A stretch of 6,641 nt of DNA from a virus (IMGVR_UViG_2681813261_000025:1-6641), one strand, 5' to 3'; shown: positions 1 through 6,641, counted from the first letter of the stretch. Notes: generated by a model not told the origin, from the letters alone. Translations and numbers: made by a program.

Positions 1-83
1 GCTCTACACTTTGAGCCTGTTAAATTGATTAAAAACTTATGTGTAAAATAGAACGCATTAGTCAGTAGCAAAGAGATGCAATA

Positions 84-876
84 ATGGACGATTTATCGGT
101 ATACGCGAGATCATTGGATAAGGCTAAATACTATGTTTACTGTCTCTATGATANNNNNNNNNNNNNNNNNNNNNGATACAGAAGACAAGATGAAAAGACC
201 GTTTTACATAGGAAAAGGCAAATCGACTCGTTGTCTCGATCACATCAAGTATCCCGATGACTCTCCCAAATCCATGCGGATCAAAGAACTTTTGGCTAAT
301 AAAAAATTAGGCATAGATATACTTCGTCATGGTATGGATGAAACCACAGCCAAACTTGTTGAGGCGACATGCATCGACCTTATGGGGGTCGGAGAGCTTA
401 CGAATAAGGTACGAGGAAGTGGTTCCATGATGGGCAGAATATCACTGGACGCCTACCATCACTTAGTGCTGCAAGAGGAAACTGAAATTGCTCCTGAGCA
501 CGCCGGTCTTGCCTTCCTGCTAAACAGCACCTACAAGTCAGGAATGTCCGCTCTGGCATTATATGAAGCTACGCGTGGCGTATGGGCAAAGGTTCCAAGA
601 GACGAGAATCTCAAATATGCCTACGCTACATATGGTGGGCTGATAATGGAAGTTTATCAGATTGAATGCTGGGTCAAAGCCGGTTCTCAGCAGTACTTTA
701 CAAGGGATATAGCTCTTGGCCCCGACACAAAACGTTATGAATTTGTTGGCAGAATAGCCGATGAGCATATTAGAAAACTGTATGTAGGCAAATTAATCAA
801 GAAGCCACCAAGCTACGGTAGCCCTTTTGTGAAGGTTGGGGTGGTTAGGACTGAACATAGTGTTAGCGCGGCATAA
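84..876 (+). CDS. GIY-YIG nuclease-domain protein with an unassigned ~180-aa C-terminal domain; the ORF is broken by the N-run and the frame differs on either side of it
   Basis: The ORF track calls 133..876. Upstream, the ATG at 84 opens a different frame reading MDDLSVYARSLDKAKYYVYCLYD up to the N-run, where YVYCLY looks like the GIY half-motif. After the gap the track frame reads RPFYIGKGKSTRCLDH, matching the YIG-x-x-K...R...H half of a GIY-YIG core. The two halves only join if the true gap length is not 21 nt, so the 5' boundary and exact length are uncertain. A hairpin terminator follows the stop. Confidence 0.5.
154..174. other. Run of 21 N (assembly gap or masked bases) inside the GIY-YIG ORF
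   Basis: Literal n characters at 154..174. The reading frame that carries the protein motifs changes across the run, so the run does not represent the true number of bases. Confidence 0.95.
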
Positions 877-892
877 AGCTGACACTGTAGTT

Positions 893-930
893 ATGCATTG
901 GCGCAATGTACGCGCCAATGCATGATTTTT
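893..930 (+). terminator. Rho-independent terminator between the convergent GIY-YIG gene and the par operon
   Basis: Perfect 12-bp stem ATGCATTGGCGC (893..904) / GCGCCAATGCAT (912..923) with a 7-nt loop, followed by GATTTTT (924..930). It lies 17 nt after the stop at 876 and overlaps the parB stop codon. Confidence 0.6.
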
Positions 931-1288
931 AACCTTTCTTCATCAACTCTCGTTTGATTTCATCGGTACGCATCGTGACATCGGCAGCGGTGATCGCCTC
1001 ATTCAATTTCACGATGTCCTCGATTTCCTGCGGTGACTTCTCTGCCAGATGGAAAATGGCTGCTCGAATCACGTCAGAACGAGTGAACTTCTCGAAGCGA
1101 GGGATGAACTTCATCATCTCCAGCAGTTCGAAGTATTCGTCCTCCAGTGACATTGTGCGGCTTTTAATTTTCTCTTTGCCACGAGTCGGGCGTCCCTGTG
1201 GTCTGACTGGTTGGCGCAAAGGAGTTGTGTTCTTAGCCGGTGCATCAGGCTCTTTGCGCTTTGCTAGGTCACCCATTTTCATGGACAT
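929..1288 (-). CDS. Small partition protein (putative centromere-binding ParB/ParG-like partner of the ParA ATPase)
   Basis: 119-aa ORF directly downstream of parA, with its ATG overlapping the parA stop (TAATG at 1286..1290 on the - strand), implying translational coupling. It has a basic Arg/Lys/Pro-rich N-terminal tail (RQPVRPQGRPTRGKEK) followed by a short helical region, the architecture expected of small type Ib centromere-binding proteins. Assignment is by context and composition, not a specific motif. Confidence 0.55.
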   Translation of the reverse strand: MSMKMGDLAKRKEPDAPAKNTTPLRQPVRPQGRPTRGKEKIKSRTMSLEDEYFELLEMMKFIPRFEKFTRSDVIRAAIFHLAEKSPQEIEDIVKLNEAITAADVTMRTDEIKRELMKKG

Positions 1289-1956
1289 TATTCTTCTTCC
1301 TCCAGACTCAACAGATAATCTACAAATTCTTCAAACTCGGCTTCCGCCTTTTTGTCGCGCTCGCTACCGGTCATTTCAAAGATAGAACGACCAGACTCTT
1401 CCGCATCATCATAGACGTTGCGGTTATACAGATTGACTGGCGCAGACTCGATTCCAAACGTCTCAACAATCTCTTTAGCCGCCAGAATGCGAGACACTTG
1501 TGATGGCAAAGCCGGGCACTGGTTCATGACCGCGCGGACCTTCACTTTATCGTTTACATTGCGAACATTGTCGATAATAGGATCGATGTCACGTAAAGAT
1601 TTCAAATCACGACGCTTAGGACGCAGCGGGATAATGATAACGTCAGCCATCAGCATCGCTTGTCGCTGAATTTCGGAGTCGAAGCCACCAGCATCTACCA
1701 CTACAAACTCAGCTCTACCCTGAAGCGATTTTAGGTGCTTAATGATGTCATCCTGAACGTATGCAAAAGGAATCAGCTCAAGGTCTTCGTTCTGTCGACG
1801 GTCTTCACACCAGCTCGTTGTCGTGCGCTGAATATCTATATCGGTAATATAAACCTTCTTCTTCTTTTTGACTTTCAGGCAAACGGCAATTTGCTGGGCA
1901 ACGGTGGATTTGCCAGGCCCGCCCTTTGTGCCGCCAACCACAAAGATCTTGGTCAT
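1288..1956 (-). CDS. parA: ParA/ParF-family partition ATPase (small type Ib ParA)
   Basis: 222-aa ORF with an N-terminal deviant Walker A motif, VVGGTKGGPGKST (KGGxGK[ST]), and a hydrophobic VVVDAGG Walker B-like stretch. Its size fits the small type Ib ParA proteins. A Shine-Dalgarno-like AAGGGA lies about 9 nt upstream of the ATG on the - strand. Confidence 0.85.
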   Translation of the reverse strand: MTKIFVVGGTKGGPGKSTVAQQIAVCLKVKKKKKVYITDIDIQRTTTSWCEDRRQNEDLELIPFAYVQDDIIKHLKSLQGRAEFVVVDAGGFDSEIQRQAMLMADVIIIPLRPKRRDLKSLRDIDPIIDNVRNVNDKVKVRAVMNQCPALPSQVSRILAAKEIVETFGIESAPVNLYNRNVYDDAEESGRSIFEMTGSERDKKAEAEFEEFVDYLLSLEEEE

Positions 1957-2274
1957 TGGAGAGTTCCCTTTGCGTATATAATTATCGTCTGAAACAACTT
2001 GTTTTCTTATATGTGATATAGCCTAAATGCCTACGGCTGCGGTGTAAAGGTTAAATGGTAGGTTGTGATTAACAATTGGCAATCATAGCTTGTATTTGTC
2101 TGTTGAAAAAAGTAACAATGACCTCTATATTACAAGTACGGTGATATGCCGTACACAATTTGATAATGCACACGTAATGGGCTATAGCCTTTTAAAGTAA
2201 TTTTTGAGTCGAAAACTCAGTTTGAACAGAGGAGATTGATGGCCTTCCTACATCACGGCCATCAGGAGGAATAC
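1957..2274. promoter_or_regulatory. Divergent control region between parA and the toxin-antitoxin operon; candidate par centromere/operator and TA operator
   Basis: 318-bp AT-rich intergenic region flanked by divergent start codons. It contains a perfect 10-bp palindrome GGCTATAGCC (2180..2189), an inverted repeat GTACGG-N7-CCGTAC (2136..2154), a small palindrome AAACTCAGTTT (2211..2221), and the recurring words GTGATAT (2013, 2141) and TATAGCC (2018, 2183). A weak sigma70-like candidate is TTGATA (2160..2165), 17-bp spacer, TATAGC (2183..2188), overlapping the palindrome. No transcription start can be determined from sequence. Confidence 0.35.
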
Positions 2275-2544
2275 ATGTCAGCACTAAAAAAGCAGCGCAT
2301 CGATTTGAGATTAACCGATGACGATAAAAGCATCATCGAGGAAGCTGCCGCAATGTCTAACCAGAGCATTACTCAGTTTATGGTTAGCAGTGCATCTGAA
2401 CGTGCCGTGAAAGTTATAGAGCAACACCGTAGACTAGTTCTGAATGAAGAATCCTGGAATCTGGTTATGGACGCTATAAGCAATCCTCCGGCACCGAACG
2501 ACAAGCTGAAACGAGCTGCTGATCGTCTGAAAAGCATGGAGTAG
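2275..2544 (+). CDS. ataR: DUF1778-type antitoxin partnering a GNAT toxin (AtaR/TacA/KacA family)
   Basis: The 89-aa product from the ATG at 2275 (MSALKKQRIDLRLTDDDK...NPPAPNDKLKRAADRL) has the length and N-terminal basic strand typical of this family, including a conserved-looking NPPAPN segment. A strong AGGAGG (2264..2269) sits 5 nt upstream. The ORF track's longer start at 2236/2239 has a poorer spacing. It lies immediately upstream of the GNAT toxin gene. The family call is firm; the specific symbol is by recalled similarity. Confidence 0.8.
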   Translation: MSALKKQRIDLRLTDDDKSIIEEAAAMSNQSITQFMVSSASERAVKVIEQHRRLVLNEESWNLVMDAISNPPAPNDKLKRAADRLKSME

Positions 2545-2551
2545 TTTACTC

Positions 2552-3073
2552 GTGAGCAATACAACGATAGAGATTTTCTCTGGAGAGAAAGATTATGATC
2601 TAAACGGTTTTGATTGCGGCGAAGAGTCACTAAACGCCTTTTTAGCCAACCACTTAAAAAGGCAGCATGAGGGAAAAATTCTTCGTGCTTATGTGCTTTG
2701 CACTCAAGAAGAAAGGCCAAAAGTGTTAGGATATTACACTTTGTCAGGTAGTTGTTTTGAAAAGGAGTCCTTACCTTCAAGAAGCAAACAAAAGAAGGTT
2801 CCTTATCGGAATGTTCCAAGTGTTACTTTGGGTAGGCTGGCTTTGGACAAGTCCCTTCAAGGTCAAGGATTTGGCTCAATGCTTGTAACACATGCAATGC
2901 GCGTTGTGTACAATGCATCTCTTGCTGTAGGCATTCATGGACTTTTCGTTGAGGCGTTAAATGACAAAGCCAAGGCGTTTTATAAAAGTTTAGGCTTTAT
3001 CCAGCTGGTTGGTAACAACGAGCGTTCTTTGTTCTATCCTACAAAATCTATCGAAAAATTGTTCGAAGAATAA
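2552..3073 (+). CDS. ataT: GNAT-family N-acetyltransferase toxin (AtaT/TacT/ItaT family, aminoacyl-tRNA acetylating)
   Basis: 173-aa ORF starting at GTG 2552, 7 nt after the antitoxin stop. The N-terminal DYDLNGFDCGEESLNAFL and the acetyl-CoA-binding-like RLALDKSLQGQGFGSML (Q/R-x-x-G-x-G/A pattern) are characteristic of GNAT toxins paired with DUF1778 antitoxins. The sequence closely resembles what I recall of E. coli AtaT; this was not verified by search. Confidence 0.85.
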   Translation: MSNTTIEIFSGEKDYDLNGFDCGEESLNAFLANHLKRQHEGKILRAYVLCTQEERPKVLGYYTLSGSCFEKESLPSRSKQKKVPYRNVPSVTLGRLALDKSLQGQGFGSMLVTHAMRVVYNASLAVGIHGLFVEALNDKAKAFYKSLGFIQLVGNNERSLFYPTKSIEKLFEE

Positions 3074-3076
3074 TGT

Positions 3077-3098
3077 GTTCCCCTCATTTGAGGGGAAC
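3077..3098. terminator. Hairpin between the convergent toxin gene and the lysis-like operon (possible bidirectional terminator)
   Basis: 9-bp stem GTTCCCCTC (3077..3085) / GAGGGGAAC (3090..3098) with a 4-nt loop, sitting between the stop at 3073 (+) and the stop at 3106 (-). There is no long T-tract on either side, so terminator strength is uncertain. Confidence 0.4.
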
Positions 3099-3105
3099 TT
3101 CGACA

Positions 3106-3321
3106 TCACCAACCACAAACCCTCTCTCCCATCGTATTGTGAAAAAGGATTTGGCGTTCGGTTTCTTCAGTCATTACATCATTATTGCTGATATAGATAG
3201 GCTCAGCCCCATCGCAGAACAACACGCTGGCTGTTTGTGGTTTAATGACGCACCCACTTATCATACAACTCACGATGAACGGCAGAAGCATCTTTCTGAC
3301 GTATTTTACTGCTCGTCTCAT
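3106..3321 (-). CDS. Putative outer-membrane lipoprotein, o-spanin-like (Rz1-like)
   Basis: 71-aa ORF with a basic n-region (MRRAVKYVRK), a hydrophobic h-region and a lipobox-like ISGC (signal peptidase II type). Its 5' end overlaps, out of frame, the 3' end of the upstream TM protein gene (3242..3321), as in overlapped spanin pairs. It is the last gene of the lysis-like cassette. Confidence 0.45.
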   Translation of the reverse strand: MRRAVKYVRKMLLPFIVSCMISGCVIKPQTASVLFCDGAEPIYISNNDVMTEETERQILFHNTMGERVCGW

Positions 3322-3493
3322 TCACCACTTTCACTGTGTTTTGAAGTCGTTTTCTGTCTTCCTGTTTTGCCTTCTCTTCCATTGCTCGTCGCGCCGCATT
3401 CCCGCCCATCGTGTAAGCGCCGACAAGAACGAAAAGAACGGCAGCCAGCGTAATCAAAGCAACTTTTAGCTTTGTCATCAGGCTGCCTAGCAT
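3242..3493 (-). CDS. Putative inner-membrane i-spanin-like protein (short; N-terminal TMD plus charged helical region)
   Basis: 83-aa ORF with an N-terminal transmembrane segment (LKVALITLAAVLFVLVGAYTM) followed by a highly charged probably helical region (RRAMEEKAKQEDRKRLQ). Its ATG lies 1 nt after the stop of the endolysin-like gene and its 3' end overlaps the lipoprotein ORF. It is shorter than classical Rz proteins, hence the low confidence. Confidence 0.4.
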   Translation of the reverse strand: MLGSLMTKLKVALITLAAVLFVLVGAYTMGGNAARRAMEEKAKQEDRKRLQNTVKVVNETSSKIRQKDASAVHRELYDKWVRH

Positions 3494-3494
3494 A

Positions 3495-4187
3495 TTAGAC
3501 CATCCCTTTCTGGTGTTTTCTTACCTGCGACCAGGCAATGAATCCTGCCACAACAATAGTGGCAATACCGAAGATGATGCGTACTGTATCCCCGCTAGAG
3601 ATATGACCTTGTGCTTTATCCATAGCAGCGGAAACCTGCGGCATAACATCGGCCAGCTGCGCCAGACCAATACCTGCTGTAACAGTTGCGCCTGCGGTTT
3701 CTTTAGTTACAGGAACAGCCTTCACGGTTTTCACCGGCTTAACAACGCCAGCTCGACGCAGACCTTCCTCAATAACTTCTGCCGCATACCAGGTGTTCAG
3801 CGTTTTTAGCGGGCCTCGGCCATTCTCGTGGCGAATGATTGCCTCAACCAAAGGTCGAAGGATGTCGTAATCATGCAGATCGATGATCATGTCTGCGGTT
3901 ACACCAACGGCTTTAGACACCTCATTAATGTAGGCGTCAGTATTGTTTTCATTCGGCGGTGCCCAGCGTTCAATAACTTCACGAATGGTATCGATACTTG
4001 TGCCGTCTTTTGCGCGACGTTTATCGTGGTAGGTAATTAGAGTCACCGCCAGCGCACGAATCCCCCAAACAGGGTCTTTAAACGTGCAAAAGCGCGGTTC
4101 GTCTGGATTCGCAACCAGACCTTGCCACGGTGATCCTTTATCAAGATTACCGGGGTTATTATTACGAATGCCTCTCGGAGTCTTCAT
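3495..4187 (-). CDS. Putative endolysin-like lysis protein of unrecognised catalytic family, with a C-terminal transmembrane anchor
   Basis: The ATG at 4187 is preceded by AGGAG about 7 nt upstream; the ORF track's GTG start at 4214 adds 9 residues. The product begins MKTPRGIRNNNPGNLDKG, has acidic conserved-looking stretches, and ends in a single hydrophobic segment (IIFGIATIVVAGFIAW). Its position between a small membrane protein and a spanin-like pair suggests the muralytic role, but I cannot match a catalytic motif (lysozyme, transglycosylase, amidase, M15, CHAP). Confidence 0.4.
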   Translation of the reverse strand: MKTPRGIRNNNPGNLDKGSPWQGLVANPDEPRFCTFKDPVWGIRALAVTLITYHDKRRAKDGTSIDTIREVIERWAPPNENNTDAYINEVSKAVGVTADMIIDLHDYDILRPLVEAIIRHENGRGPLKTLNTWYAAEVIEEGLRRAGVVKPVKTVKAVPVTKETAGATVTAGIGLAQLADVMPQVSAAMDKAQGHISSGDTVRIIFGIATIVVAGFIAWSQVRKHQKGMV

Positions 4188-4200
4188 CCTTGATCTCCTG

Positions 4201-4524
4201 TTATTGCAGTCCACTTTTTACGCCATACGCGGCTAACCCCAAAAGCAGTGCGGTAATAATGAACGACGTTATTTTAGAAACAATGCCGCCAAAGAACCCA
4301 CTTGAGATGGAATCTAACCGGTTAAGGAGTTTGTCCAGATTGGAGTGTTGAATACTATGTTGCGCCGGGGTCATATCACCAAAGTAGGTTTTCAGCTGAT
4401 CATTGACCTCCTGGCCAATTTCTTCACGTAGCTCTTTACCTAATTTGCCAACAACCTCCCGAGCAACGATCGCGGCAATACGCTCAACTTGCTCTGTTGT
4501 AACGCCCGCCATCTCGTTCGACAT
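4201..4524 (-). CDS. Small tail-anchored membrane protein, holin-like by position (first gene of the lysis-like cassette)
   Basis: The second in-frame ATG at 4524 has an excellent RBS (GGAGGA, 5-nt spacer), so the first ATG at 4536 is unlikely to be used. The product has a ~75-aa hydrophilic N-terminal part and one C-terminal TMD (FFGGIVSKITSFIITALLLGLAAYGV). This topology is atypical for canonical holins, so the functional call is tentative. Confidence 0.4.
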   Translation of the reverse strand: MSNEMAGVTTEQVERIAAIVAREVVGKLGKELREEIGQEVNDQLKTYFGDMTPAQHSIQHSNLDKLLNRLDSISSGFFGGIVSKITSFIITALLLGLAAYGVKSGLQ

Positions 4525-4583
4525 GTTTTCCTCCATGAAAAGTCAAATCGGGATGGCGGATTTATATCATATTTTAACCATTT

Positions 4584-4620
4584 GTAGTAGGTATATACTT
4601 ACCTACTATATATCTTGCAA
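4584..4620 (-). promoter_or_regulatory. Candidate promoter with an embedded perfect palindromic operator upstream of the lysis-like cassette
   Basis: The 121-bp AT-rich intergenic region 4537..4657 contains a perfect inverted repeat TAGTAGGTA (4585..4593), 6-bp spacer TATACT, TACCTACTA (4600..4608). Read on the - strand there is a sigma70-like TTGCAA (-35), a 17-bp spacer and TATATA (-10), with the -10 lying inside the palindrome. A second small dyad GCAGAT-ATA-ATCTGC (4640..4654) sits just after the tfa stop. Confidence 0.4.
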
Positions 4621-4657
4621 ACTAATCGTTGTTAATAATGCAGATATAATCTGCCCC

Positions 4658-5239
4658 TTACTCTGCTGGTATTGTTGGCCAGTCAATATCCGGTGCCGTT
4701 GATGTGTCAATGCGGTTCAATAAAACTCTATACTTCTTCCATGCAGTCAGCAACGATGCTTCTTCCTCCGTTGCAATCTCCAAATCTACAGCATCCTGAA
4801 GTGGCGCAATGTGCTCGCTGGCTACCTGCATCAGACTTTTTTTTGTTTCTTCCGCTTCCCGTACCTGAAACAATTTTTCTGTTTCCGTATCCTTCACCCA
4901 GGCTGTGCCGTCCCACTTCTGATATTCCCCATCCGGTGATAACCAGGTGACATTTTCCGGTAATGGCCCAAGTTCAGAAATAAACAACGCGTCCCCTGAT
5001 TCCACGTCATAGACCGTTTTACCCCTGTGGTCTTCAACGAGACTCCATGATTTATTTTCGCTGTTGAATACGGCCACGAAGCCAGCAGGTACATCCGGTG
5101 GCGCTATATCCGTAGAATAAGCTGGCAGCCCTGTATGAGGTGGAATATATGCATCACCTTCACCAATAAATTCATTGGTTCCGGCCAACAGATTATAAAT
5201 TTTTATGGTCCGTGGTTGTTCACTCATTGTGAAGTCCAT
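4658..5239 (-). CDS. tfa: Tail fiber assembly protein (lambda Tfa-like chaperone)
   Basis: The product ([60 protein letters not shown]...[21 protein letters not shown]) is near-identical over its length to what I recall of phage lambda Tfa and the E. coli prophage TfaE/TfaR proteins. The ATG at 5239 is preceded by AGAGGTGA; the ORF track's start at 5245 is a GTG two codons upstream. Confidence 0.9.
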
Positions 5240-5247
5240 GTTCACCT

Positions 5248-6150
5248 CTACTTAATATCAAAGACAGTATGTTGTTTATTGAGTGTATGGGTGTGAGCAC
5301 CAACAGTGATGCCCCTTCCGTGATTATATGCGCCAGTGGCGATATTGCCTCCGGTATTTTCCGGATTAATCCGGTGTATATGCGAACCAGGGCGAAACCG
5401 GTTATTAGCCTGATGTTGTATCAGTACATCATCAGCCTGATGTTCAGGGTTAATACAGATCTGCCCTGAACGTGAGCAATACGTCCGATAATCGCCGCAT
5501 CCAATATATTTAGTATCCGCATAACGGCAAACAGAATTACCCGGACAGTATGCATATGTGCCAAATACTGCCGACTGGCGGGAGTGTGCGTATTCCCAGT
5601 TAATTGCTTCTGTTTTTTTATTAAAGTTATCCCACGCCTGCTTCATCTGCCGGGCAACGCTTTCAAACGGAACCTGACCACATCCGGCCCCCATTGCAGG
5701 GAATACCACCGTCTTTATTTTCCTGTCTGTCGTTGCGTTTTTATTGTGCTGAAAGATGGCAAGTAAAGCGGCCCAGGTTGCGTTATATACAGAGTCTGTT
5801 CCGTCAATTGTCAGCGGAACACGCATTGTTGGCGCATGTACCAGCCAGGGGTGATGATTATGCCCCGTTTCAATAACAAATGCAGAACCTACAGGCTGCT
5901 CGCCTAGATATTCACGAAGAATATGATTCTGAACGCGGGACTGTAACTGAGTACCGAAGAATGCGGTAATGGCGGCATCAACGCCGCCATCCATCAGGCC
6001 GAAACTATTTGCCGCACTTACCATGCAGTCAAATTCTCTGATTGTTTCAAATGGCTTTCCGACAATATTCACATTATCTGCGTTTGCAAATACCCGCTTA
6101 AATGCTTCAGCCATTTCTGTTACTGGTGCAGAAAGAATGAGCGTAATCAT
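5248..6150 (-). CDS. Macro-domain (ADP-ribose binding/hydrolase-like) protein fused to a Cys/His-rich tail-fibre-repeat-like C-terminal module
   Basis: 300-aa ORF whose ATG overlaps the tail-fibre stop (ATGA at 6147..6150), with GAGG 7 nt upstream. The N-terminal ~185 aa carry macro-domain motifs: [21 protein letters not shown] (compare the canonical xxVNAAN...GGGGVDGAI), [20 protein letters not shown], and [14 protein letters not shown] (compare AFPxISTGxYGxP). The C-terminal ~110 aa have six Cys ([10 protein letters not shown]...[16 protein letters not shown]) and GSHIHRI / GAHTHTL repeats of the same GxHxH type as the adjacent tail fibre. The ORF ends 8 nt before tfa. Confidence 0.8.
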
Positions 6151-6641
6151 GCAAGCCTCACAATATAGTTAAATGCGATGTTTTTGACGGTGTTTTCCGC
6201 GTTACCAGCAGCGTTAACGGTGATGGTGTGTCCATGTGAACCAATCGCAACGGAGTGCGTATGAGCACCAATACCGACAGTATGTGCGTGAGCACCTGCG
6301 CTTGCGGCACTACCGGATAACGAGTGGGTATGTGCTCCATCTGATGATGTCTTCCCTGATATACGGGCCATACCTTGGCCACCTTGCCGTGGTACAACTG
6401 GTTTGTTTGTGACTGAAACCTGGGTATAACCGTTAGGAAAGAGATCACCATCATTAGTATTCGCATATGGTCCAGAACTATGGTGTTGGTGCCCACCTGC
6501 ACTATTTGCAGTCCCGCTAATACTATGGGTATGCGCCCCGGTGTTATTCGTGGATTTGGTTCCGTAATCAAACGACGATGTGGTTTTCGTCCCCAAATCC
6601 GTACTGGATGCGCTGGCGCTGTGGGTGTGCGATTTAATGCC
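6147..6641 (-). CDS. stf: Side tail fibre protein, C-terminal portion (5' end lies beyond the window)
   Basis: The reading frame is open to the window edge ([15 protein letters not shown] precedes the track's TTG start at 6596), so the gene is partial. The product has Gly/Ser/Thr-rich sequence with multiple GAHTHS / GAHAHT / GSHGHT repeats typical of T4 gp37 / lambda Stf-type fibres, and ends [15 protein letters not shown]. It is in the same orientation as tfa and upstream of it. Confidence 0.85.

Follow-up and report, generated by a model that had tools for sequence, protein, structure and literature searches.

The 6,641-nt viral sequence IMGVR_UViG_2681813261_000025 (hereafter the window, meaning the whole stretch of DNA analyzed, which is the entire 6641-bp contig CXEK01000195.1 of draft assembly GCA_001248175.1) is very probably a segment of an SSU5-type (SSU5_pHCM2 group) phage-plasmid, in which the end of the late operon, with its tail fiber and lysis genes, meets the start of the plasmid-maintenance and replication region, with its par, helicase and primase genes. 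An earlier note on this sequence had placed plasmid-type partition and toxin-antitoxin (TA) genes beside tail fiber and lysis genes and had suggested an extrachromosomal prophage. All of the gene classes it named were found where it had put them, and the phage-plasmid suggestion is upheld by the best phage matches, by the plasmid location of the central gene block and by the episomal, inducible and virion-producing relative Cyrano. Two genes had been overlooked, a GIY-YIG nuclease gene (84-876) and a macro-domain gene (5248-6150), and a third strand switch, divergent and located at 1957-2274, was absent from it. The kind of element is already known, and the adjacency of plasmid genes and phage tail-fiber/lysis genes is real but ordinary; the main value of the finding is the assignment of a small draft contig to an SSU5-type phage-plasmid. 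The most curious item in the window is a conserved macro-domain gene placed exactly between stf and tfa.

Assignment to the SSU5-type phage-plasmids

The SSU5 supergroup is an established group and the largest described set of related phage-plasmids (PMC7969092). In a megablast search against phages, a comparison that the earlier note had proposed, the top matches to the window were CMS-2020a (98% identity), Cyrano (99%, over 931-4613), PhiR41_1 (96%) and SSU5 (84%), all of which are SSU5-type phage-plasmids. Against plasmids, 879 records matched, mostly ~105-115-kb replicons labeled "non-mobilizable", with Escherichia, Klebsiella, Enterobacter and Salmonella as hosts. Among 5426 complete E. 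coli genomes, 264 contained the partition-TA-lysis block (929-4536), at 266 places in total; every one of these was on a plasmid, none was on a chromosome, and in one plasmid the block was 100% identical. SSU5-type elements are common in E. coli (~5% of the complete genomes here), are often mislabeled as plain plasmids, and carry defense, addiction and sometimes resistance genes.

Another assembly has a contig of 109,254 bp (L009) with a copy of the window at 99.5% identity, and inspection of the left flank of this copy found a hypothetical gene, then a DnaB helicase gene, then a primase gene. This agrees with the gene order common to pTB212, Cyrano, SSU5 and pTW10722, which runs J, tail fiber, holin, endolysin, Rz/Rz1, a variable slot, parA, a gene for a 119-aa protein, a second variable slot, a hypothetical gene, DnaB helicase and primase. 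Sequence, with backbone identities of 99% (Cyrano) and 81-87% (SSU5), and gene order (four relatives) both place the window in the SSU5_pHCM2 group. Plasmid location is given by proxy, through the complete E. coli genomes and the 109-kb copy, and not by the replicon of the source strain itself. In the relatives Cyrano and pTB212, genes for packaging, capsid and tail were seen together with a replication initiator, the content of Cyrano comprising terminase, portal, major capsid, tape measure, J, integrase, repressor, RepA, helicase and primase genes. In experiments, Cyrano (pLF82) behaved as a plasmid of ~5.5 copies per cell, made virions and responded to ciprofloxacin with 39-fold induction (PMC9928086). 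The window and the 109-kb contig each terminate within the fiber gene, from which we infer that repeats of this gene in chromosomal prophages break short-read assemblies.

Two other origins of the contig were weighed. It could stem from a defective phage-plasmid or tailocin-like remnant that keeps par, TA, lysis and fiber genes but no longer makes virions and is not inducible, an option that the earlier note had itself raised and that we consider improbable. The 6.6-kb contig is all that is available for the strain, phage-plasmids that are defective or hybrid have been described (PMC12977533), and some of the matching plasmids are of unusual size (69.9, 163 and 324 kb). Set against this, the window open reading frames (ORFs) are all intact, an assembly gap excepted, the 99.5%-identical copy sits on a contig of typical full size, and the closest relatives have complete virion modules. 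Chromosomal integration, which the earlier note had named as the outcome that would refute its reading, was not found. Derivation from a chromosomally integrated lambdoid prophage with a captured par/TA module is effectively refuted, since the chromosomal matches in thousands of E. coli genomes (6673 places with the whole window as query) derive from the stf/tfa part alone, which is common to lambdoid prophages, the partition-TA-lysis block is chromosomal in 0 of its 266 places, and SSU5-backbone DnaB and primase genes occupy the left flank of the 99.5% copy.

Several points weigh against the assignment to an SSU5-type phage-plasmid. Only 6.6 kb of the strain's element is visible, so that replication, capsid and terminase genes and circularity are read across from relatives, and the functions of the window genes are predictions from sequence. 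The partition system is the weak point of the reading. The presumed partner of ParA, a 119-aa protein, has no recognizable DNA-binding fold (phmmer and profile searches against PDB, Pfam on 12 family members and Foldseek against PDB returned nothing significant), and centromere repeats were not found in repeat scans of 1950-2280 or in a k-mer comparison with five relatives, although the site may be non-repetitive or distant.

The earlier note had proposed a small ParA/ParB-type operon, and its first half holds. The parA gene (1288-1956, - strand) encodes a small ParA/ParF-type partition ATPase of 222 aa that has a deviant Walker A motif (GGTKGGPGKST) and lacks an N-terminal DNA-binding domain, as in type Ib systems. 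It matches Pfam MipZ/AAA_31/CbiA, phrog_164 ("ParA-like partition protein") and, below the family cut-off, NCBIfam ParA_partition (E 2e-33), and its closest solved structure is ParF of TP228 (PDB 4DZZ, E 1e-10). The second half is left with a coupled 119-aa partner whose ParB identity is unproven. The gene for this protein (929-1288, - strand), the start of which overlaps the parA stop by one base, is presumed from position and coupling to specify a centromere-binding (ParG/ParB-like) partner, and the protein would act as a ParA adaptor that binds the centromere and stimulates ParA. It belongs to a function-unknown family (phrog_5111) that is narrow, being confined to SSU5-type elements. Within the family the N-terminal MGDLAK is invariant, a stretch of basic residues is present and a helix, TRSDVIRAAI, is conserved. 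We take this helix to resemble the second helix of ribbon-helix-helix proteins, as a lead only. The AF2 model has a disordered N-terminal half followed by helices (pLDDT 63). A weak, sub-threshold match was obtained to NCBIfam aCcr1, a ribbon-helix-helix family (E 2e-4; 21 bits, where the cut-off is 60). The annotation of the gene in Cyrano (CYRAN_29) as "RelE/ParE putative toxin" was rejected, as no search supports it. Upstream of parA, the conserved region 1957-2063 is presumed to hold the par promoter/operator and a candidate centromere; sequence comparison showed a 105-nt block common to SSU5, Cyrano and pTW10722, with the breakpoint against SSU5 and pTW10722 at 2063.

Homology identifies the ATPase as ParF-type, the acetyltransferase toxin, which is paired with an antitoxin, as AtaT/KacT-type and the endolysin as Enc34-type, and it identifies the spanins and the Tfa chaperone. 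With these parts the phage-plasmid most likely works as follows. During lysogeny it would replicate as a low-copy plasmid, the copies being segregated by the ParF-like ATPase and its small coupled partner. The AtaRT/KacAT-type pair, to judge from its close homologs, would kill or arrest plasmid-free segregants through acetylation of charged tRNA, and the GIY-YIG CMoRE-like nuclease, by more distant homology, may restrict competing T-even-like phages with modified cytosines and so shield the lysogen. Upon induction, the late genes would make the fiber with the Tfa chaperone, and lysis of the cell would fall to the holin, to the Enc34-type endolysin, which is tethered to the membrane, and to the spanins.

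Conserved backbone and variable cassettes

Pairwise BLAST placed breakpoints of homology at 931 (Cyrano, SSU5 and pTW10722), at 2063 and 3114 (SSU5 and pTW10722) and at 4605-4613 (all three). The conserved backbone therefore consists of 931-2063 (parA, its partner and 105 nt upstream) and 3114-~4610 (Rz1 through holin). The variable cassettes are 1-930, with the GIY-YIG gene and a terminator hairpin at its right-hand edge; 2064-3113, with the TA pair and a hairpin likewise at its right-hand edge; and the stretch right of ~4613, with stf-macro-tfa, which is common to lambdoid and P2-like phages. By this comparison three backbone slots hold exchangeable cassettes, two of which bring their own predicted terminator hairpin. 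The claim that hairpins at strand switches coincide with module boundaries is thus borne out by where homology to the relatives stops. The three slots at the lysis-par junction are hot spots for the swapping of cargo (TA pair, restriction-like nuclease and receptor-binding cassettes), with terminator hairpins marking two cassette edges, and the breakpoint map should be a modest aid to annotation, typing and host-range prediction of SSU5-type elements.

Hairpin 1 (889-926, + strand) has a 16-bp stem and a 7-nt loop followed by a U-run, and is the intrinsic terminator of the GIY-YIG cassette; its fold of -26.6 kcal/mol (z -4.36) was equaled by 0 of 200 shuffles. This palindrome was also considered as a parS candidate and rejected, because Cyrano and SSU5 do not have the variable GIY-YIG cassette to which it belongs. 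Hairpin 2 (3077-3098) is a 9-bp GC-rich stem between the convergent toxin and Rz1 genes, with z of -3.7 on the + strand and -4.5 on the - strand, where it is terminator-like; it is likely a bidirectional terminator. For either hairpin, no more than 2 of 200 shuffles folded as well. In scans of the window, neither promoter-like sites (7, with 10.7 expected from shuffles) nor terminator-like sites (6, with 6.0 expected) were enriched.

The window also shows a join of two lineages. Over positions 1-4613 the identity is 99.7%, to plasmids of E. albertii and E. coli in which the fiber differs; over the fiber cassette it is 95%, to the pTB212 lineage. The window is accordingly a recombinant, with the junction at ~4605-4613 in the holin-tfa spacer, and the pattern indicates that the receptor-binding cassette was exchanged recently.

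The GIY-YIG nuclease gene (84-876, + strand) encodes a distant homolog of CMoRE/PD-T4-3, a candidate for type IV restriction or anti-phage defense. CMoRE/PD-T4-3 is a modification-dependent restriction enzyme (PMC12923530). The protein matches Pfam LEM-3_GIY-YIG (E 5e-7) and PADLOC PD-T4-3 (E 1e-19, over 29-238 of 256 profile positions), and its residues 22-222 align with both domains of CMoRE (PDB 9U7U, E 2e-13), which predicts the same architecture of a GIY-YIG domain with a modification-sensing domain at the C-terminus. In the window the frame is broken by 21 N at 154-174 and a duplicated GATA, and the gene is intact, with 255 aa, in pTB212 and in two 99.5%-identical copies (L009 and L011). 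Since these two near-identical contigs are continuous at the site, with neither the N-run nor the GATA duplication, the N-run is an assembly gap and not biology, and a frameshifting insertion in the gene was rejected. The slot, which lies beside par, is occupied by a P-loop NTPase gene in pTW10722 and by a DUF2971 gene, among others, in SSU5, and so looks like a hot spot for defense cargo.

In the second cassette, the antitoxin gene (2275-2544, + strand) is of the DUF1778/TacA type (AtaR/KacA-like), matching Pfam TacA1 (E 9e-26) and KacA (PDB 5ZGN, E 2e-41), the latter alignment starting at residue 14 of the longer ORF. It lies directly upstream of the toxin gene (2552-3073, + strand), which encodes a GNAT acetyltransferase (AtaT/KacT-like) with matches to Pfam GNAT families and to AtaT (6AJM, E 3e-79) and KacT (5XUN, E 1e-74) in PDB. 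Both proteins are thus homologous to characterized pairs, and the two genes would form the addiction module of the plasmid prophage. A 10-kb contig labeled "MAG: Bacillota bacterium" (JAEWTL010000041.1) has the same enterobacterial phage-plasmid region at 89-91% identity, with a different sequence, ~170 nt shorter, at the site of the TA cassette; it is probably a mis-binned contig. No tRNAs were found in the window.

The macro-domain gene, its fiber neighbors and the lysis genes

The earlier note had called both the fiber and the lysis genes lambda-type, a label that stands for stf and tfa but not for lysis. The 3′ end of stf (6147-6641, - strand), which runs off the contig end, belongs to a lambdoid-type side tail fiber with GxHxH repeats. 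It matches the Pfam Phage_fiber repeat, has 85% nucleotide identity to the tail fiber gene of the lambdoid phage ev099 and 85-88% to lambdoid side-tail-fiber genes in megablast, and in the 109-kb copy a collar domain follows directly past the window edge. The tfa gene (4658-5239, - strand) encodes a tail fiber assembly chaperone (Pfam Caudo_TAP, E 2e-44) with 86% nucleotide identity to tfa of ev099. The usual direct stf-tfa junction is split by the macro-domain gene. The sole Rfam match in the window, IS009 (RF02111, 194 bits; 4698-4896, - strand), falls wholly within tfa coding sequence, and what this "RNA family" captures is probably tfa coding DNA conserved among prophages.

Compared with ev099, in which the start of tfa directly adjoins the stop of stf, the macro-domain gene (5248-6150, - strand) is an exact insertion of 906 nt (5240-6145). 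It begins with an ATG that overlaps the TGA of stf (ATGA), and its stop lies 8 nt ahead of the tfa start. The 300-aa product (phrog_2613) has a MacroD-like domain (Pfam Macro, E 5e-19), followed by a region with four cysteines and then by a variable His-rich tail with GxHxH motifs. Assignment to the macro domain is further supported by an N-x6-GG[VLI]D motif and a glycine-rich phosphate loop, the residues N48, GGVD 55-58 and GAGxG 154-158 being invariant in 17 homologs. The first ~195 residues, which comprise the macro domain with its flanks, fall into a broad family in which macro proteins of ~200 aa stand alone (matches from 1337 representative clusters at E <1e-10), and nearly all of the 150 best matches listed align within residues 1-200. 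The P2-like myovirus Chuche has the stf-macro-tfa order too, and so do plasmids of lambdoid size and of P1 size and many genomes of Salmonella and E. coli, with 1704 proteins that are often named "phage tail protein". The macro-domain gene is translationally coupled to the fiber gene, and it moves together with the stf-tfa cassette between phages of the lambdoid, P2-like and SSU5 types.

Searches with the His-rich tail as sole query returned two fragments only, and a local phmmer search of the tail against all ORFs of the fetched loci returned macro homologs only and no fibers. Kinship of this tail with the GxHxH repeats of the fiber was therefore rejected, the likeness being a short motif only (a 17-nt DNA repeat). 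The AF2 model of the macro protein was too poor for a fold search (pLDDT 56), and our literature search found no paper on the stf-macro-tfa macro-protein family. In phage T4, the macrodomain protein AdfM counters DarTG (bioRxiv 10.1101/2025.11.20.689424). Tentatively, the product in the window might be a late-expressed and possibly virion- or fiber-associated ADP-ribosylhydrolase, which could, as counter-defense, remove the ADP-ribose marks placed by DarT-type host systems, or could act on a surface structure, although we hold this to be rather unlikely.

The lysis genes keep the lambda order of holin, endolysin and i-spanin with an overlapping o-spanin lipoprotein, but neither the holin nor the endolysin showed homology to its lambda counterpart (S and R, respectively), and by homology the cassette is classed as SSU5/Enc34-type and not lambda-type. 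The putative holin (4201-4524, - strand; phrog_5093, E 2e-68) has one C-terminal transmembrane helix by hydropathy and belongs to an SSU5-specific family, unrelated to lambda S, that is annotated as holin in SSU5 and Cyrano. The endolysin (3495-4187, - strand; phrog_873 endolysin) matches PDB 7Q47 (E 4e-54; PMC8943055) and has a transmembrane segment at 208-231, C-terminal to the catalytic domain. Neither protein has a Pfam match. RefSeq often labels this endolysin just "membrane protein". Rz (3242-3493, - strand; phrog_1026, E 7e-25) is an i-spanin with an N-terminal transmembrane helix by hydropathy, and its 3′ end is overlapped by Rz1 (3106-3291, - strand), an o-spanin lipoprotein with lipobox ISGC and a signal-peptide hydrophobic window at 8-26 (phrog_1275 Rz-like spanin, E 1e-24).

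Comparison with known systems

Of the characterized systems, ParF-ParG of TP228 (type Ib) resembles the window in its small Walker-type ParA and in the small gene that comes after parA, is coupled to it in translation and encodes a protein with a long disordered N-terminus. It differs in that similarity of the window partner to ParG, or to ribbon-helix-helix families in general, was not detected, and no repeat array was found upstream in the window. Both TA proteins match AtaR-AtaT of E. coli O157 and KacA-KacT of Klebsiella over their full length and in the same antitoxin-first order, but the window pair sits in an exchangeable phage-plasmid cassette. With CMoRE/PD-T4-3 the GIY-YIG protein shares the N-terminal nuclease domain and the C-terminal domain over ~200 aligned residues; it is a distant relative, and specificity for 5hmC/glucosyl-5hmC is a candidate property only. 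The endolysin of Hafnia phage Enc34 (PDB 7Q47) has the same unusual architecture, an N-terminal lysozyme-fold domain with a transmembrane helix at the C-terminus, with the likeness lying in the catalytic domain, although Enc34 belongs to a phage lineage other than that of the window.

Among whole elements, Salmonella phage SSU5 (NC_018843), which was isolated as a phage, has 81-87% identity over 931-2063 and 3114-4606 and an identical backbone order. It carries its own fiber, adhesin and cor genes where the window has the lambdoid stf-macro-tfa cassette, and both SSU5 and pTW10722 have other genes in the TA slot. Cyrano (OV696614) is closer, with 99% identity over 931-4613, the same AtaRT/KacAT-type pair and an identical backbone order of holin, endolysin, Rz/Rz1, slot, parA and the 119-aa gene, but it has a P1-S-like fiber without tfa and lacks the GIY-YIG cassette. 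Full-length collinearity, including the GIY-YIG, TA, lysis, tfa, macro and stf genes, was found with pTB212 (E. coli ECCHD184, NZ_CP033252) and similar 106-117-kb plasmids, at an overall identity of 92% that divides into ~86-90% in the left part and 95% in the fiber cassette. Relative to pTB212, the window joins a left part of the Cyrano/E. albertii type (99.7%) to a fiber cassette of the pTB212 type.

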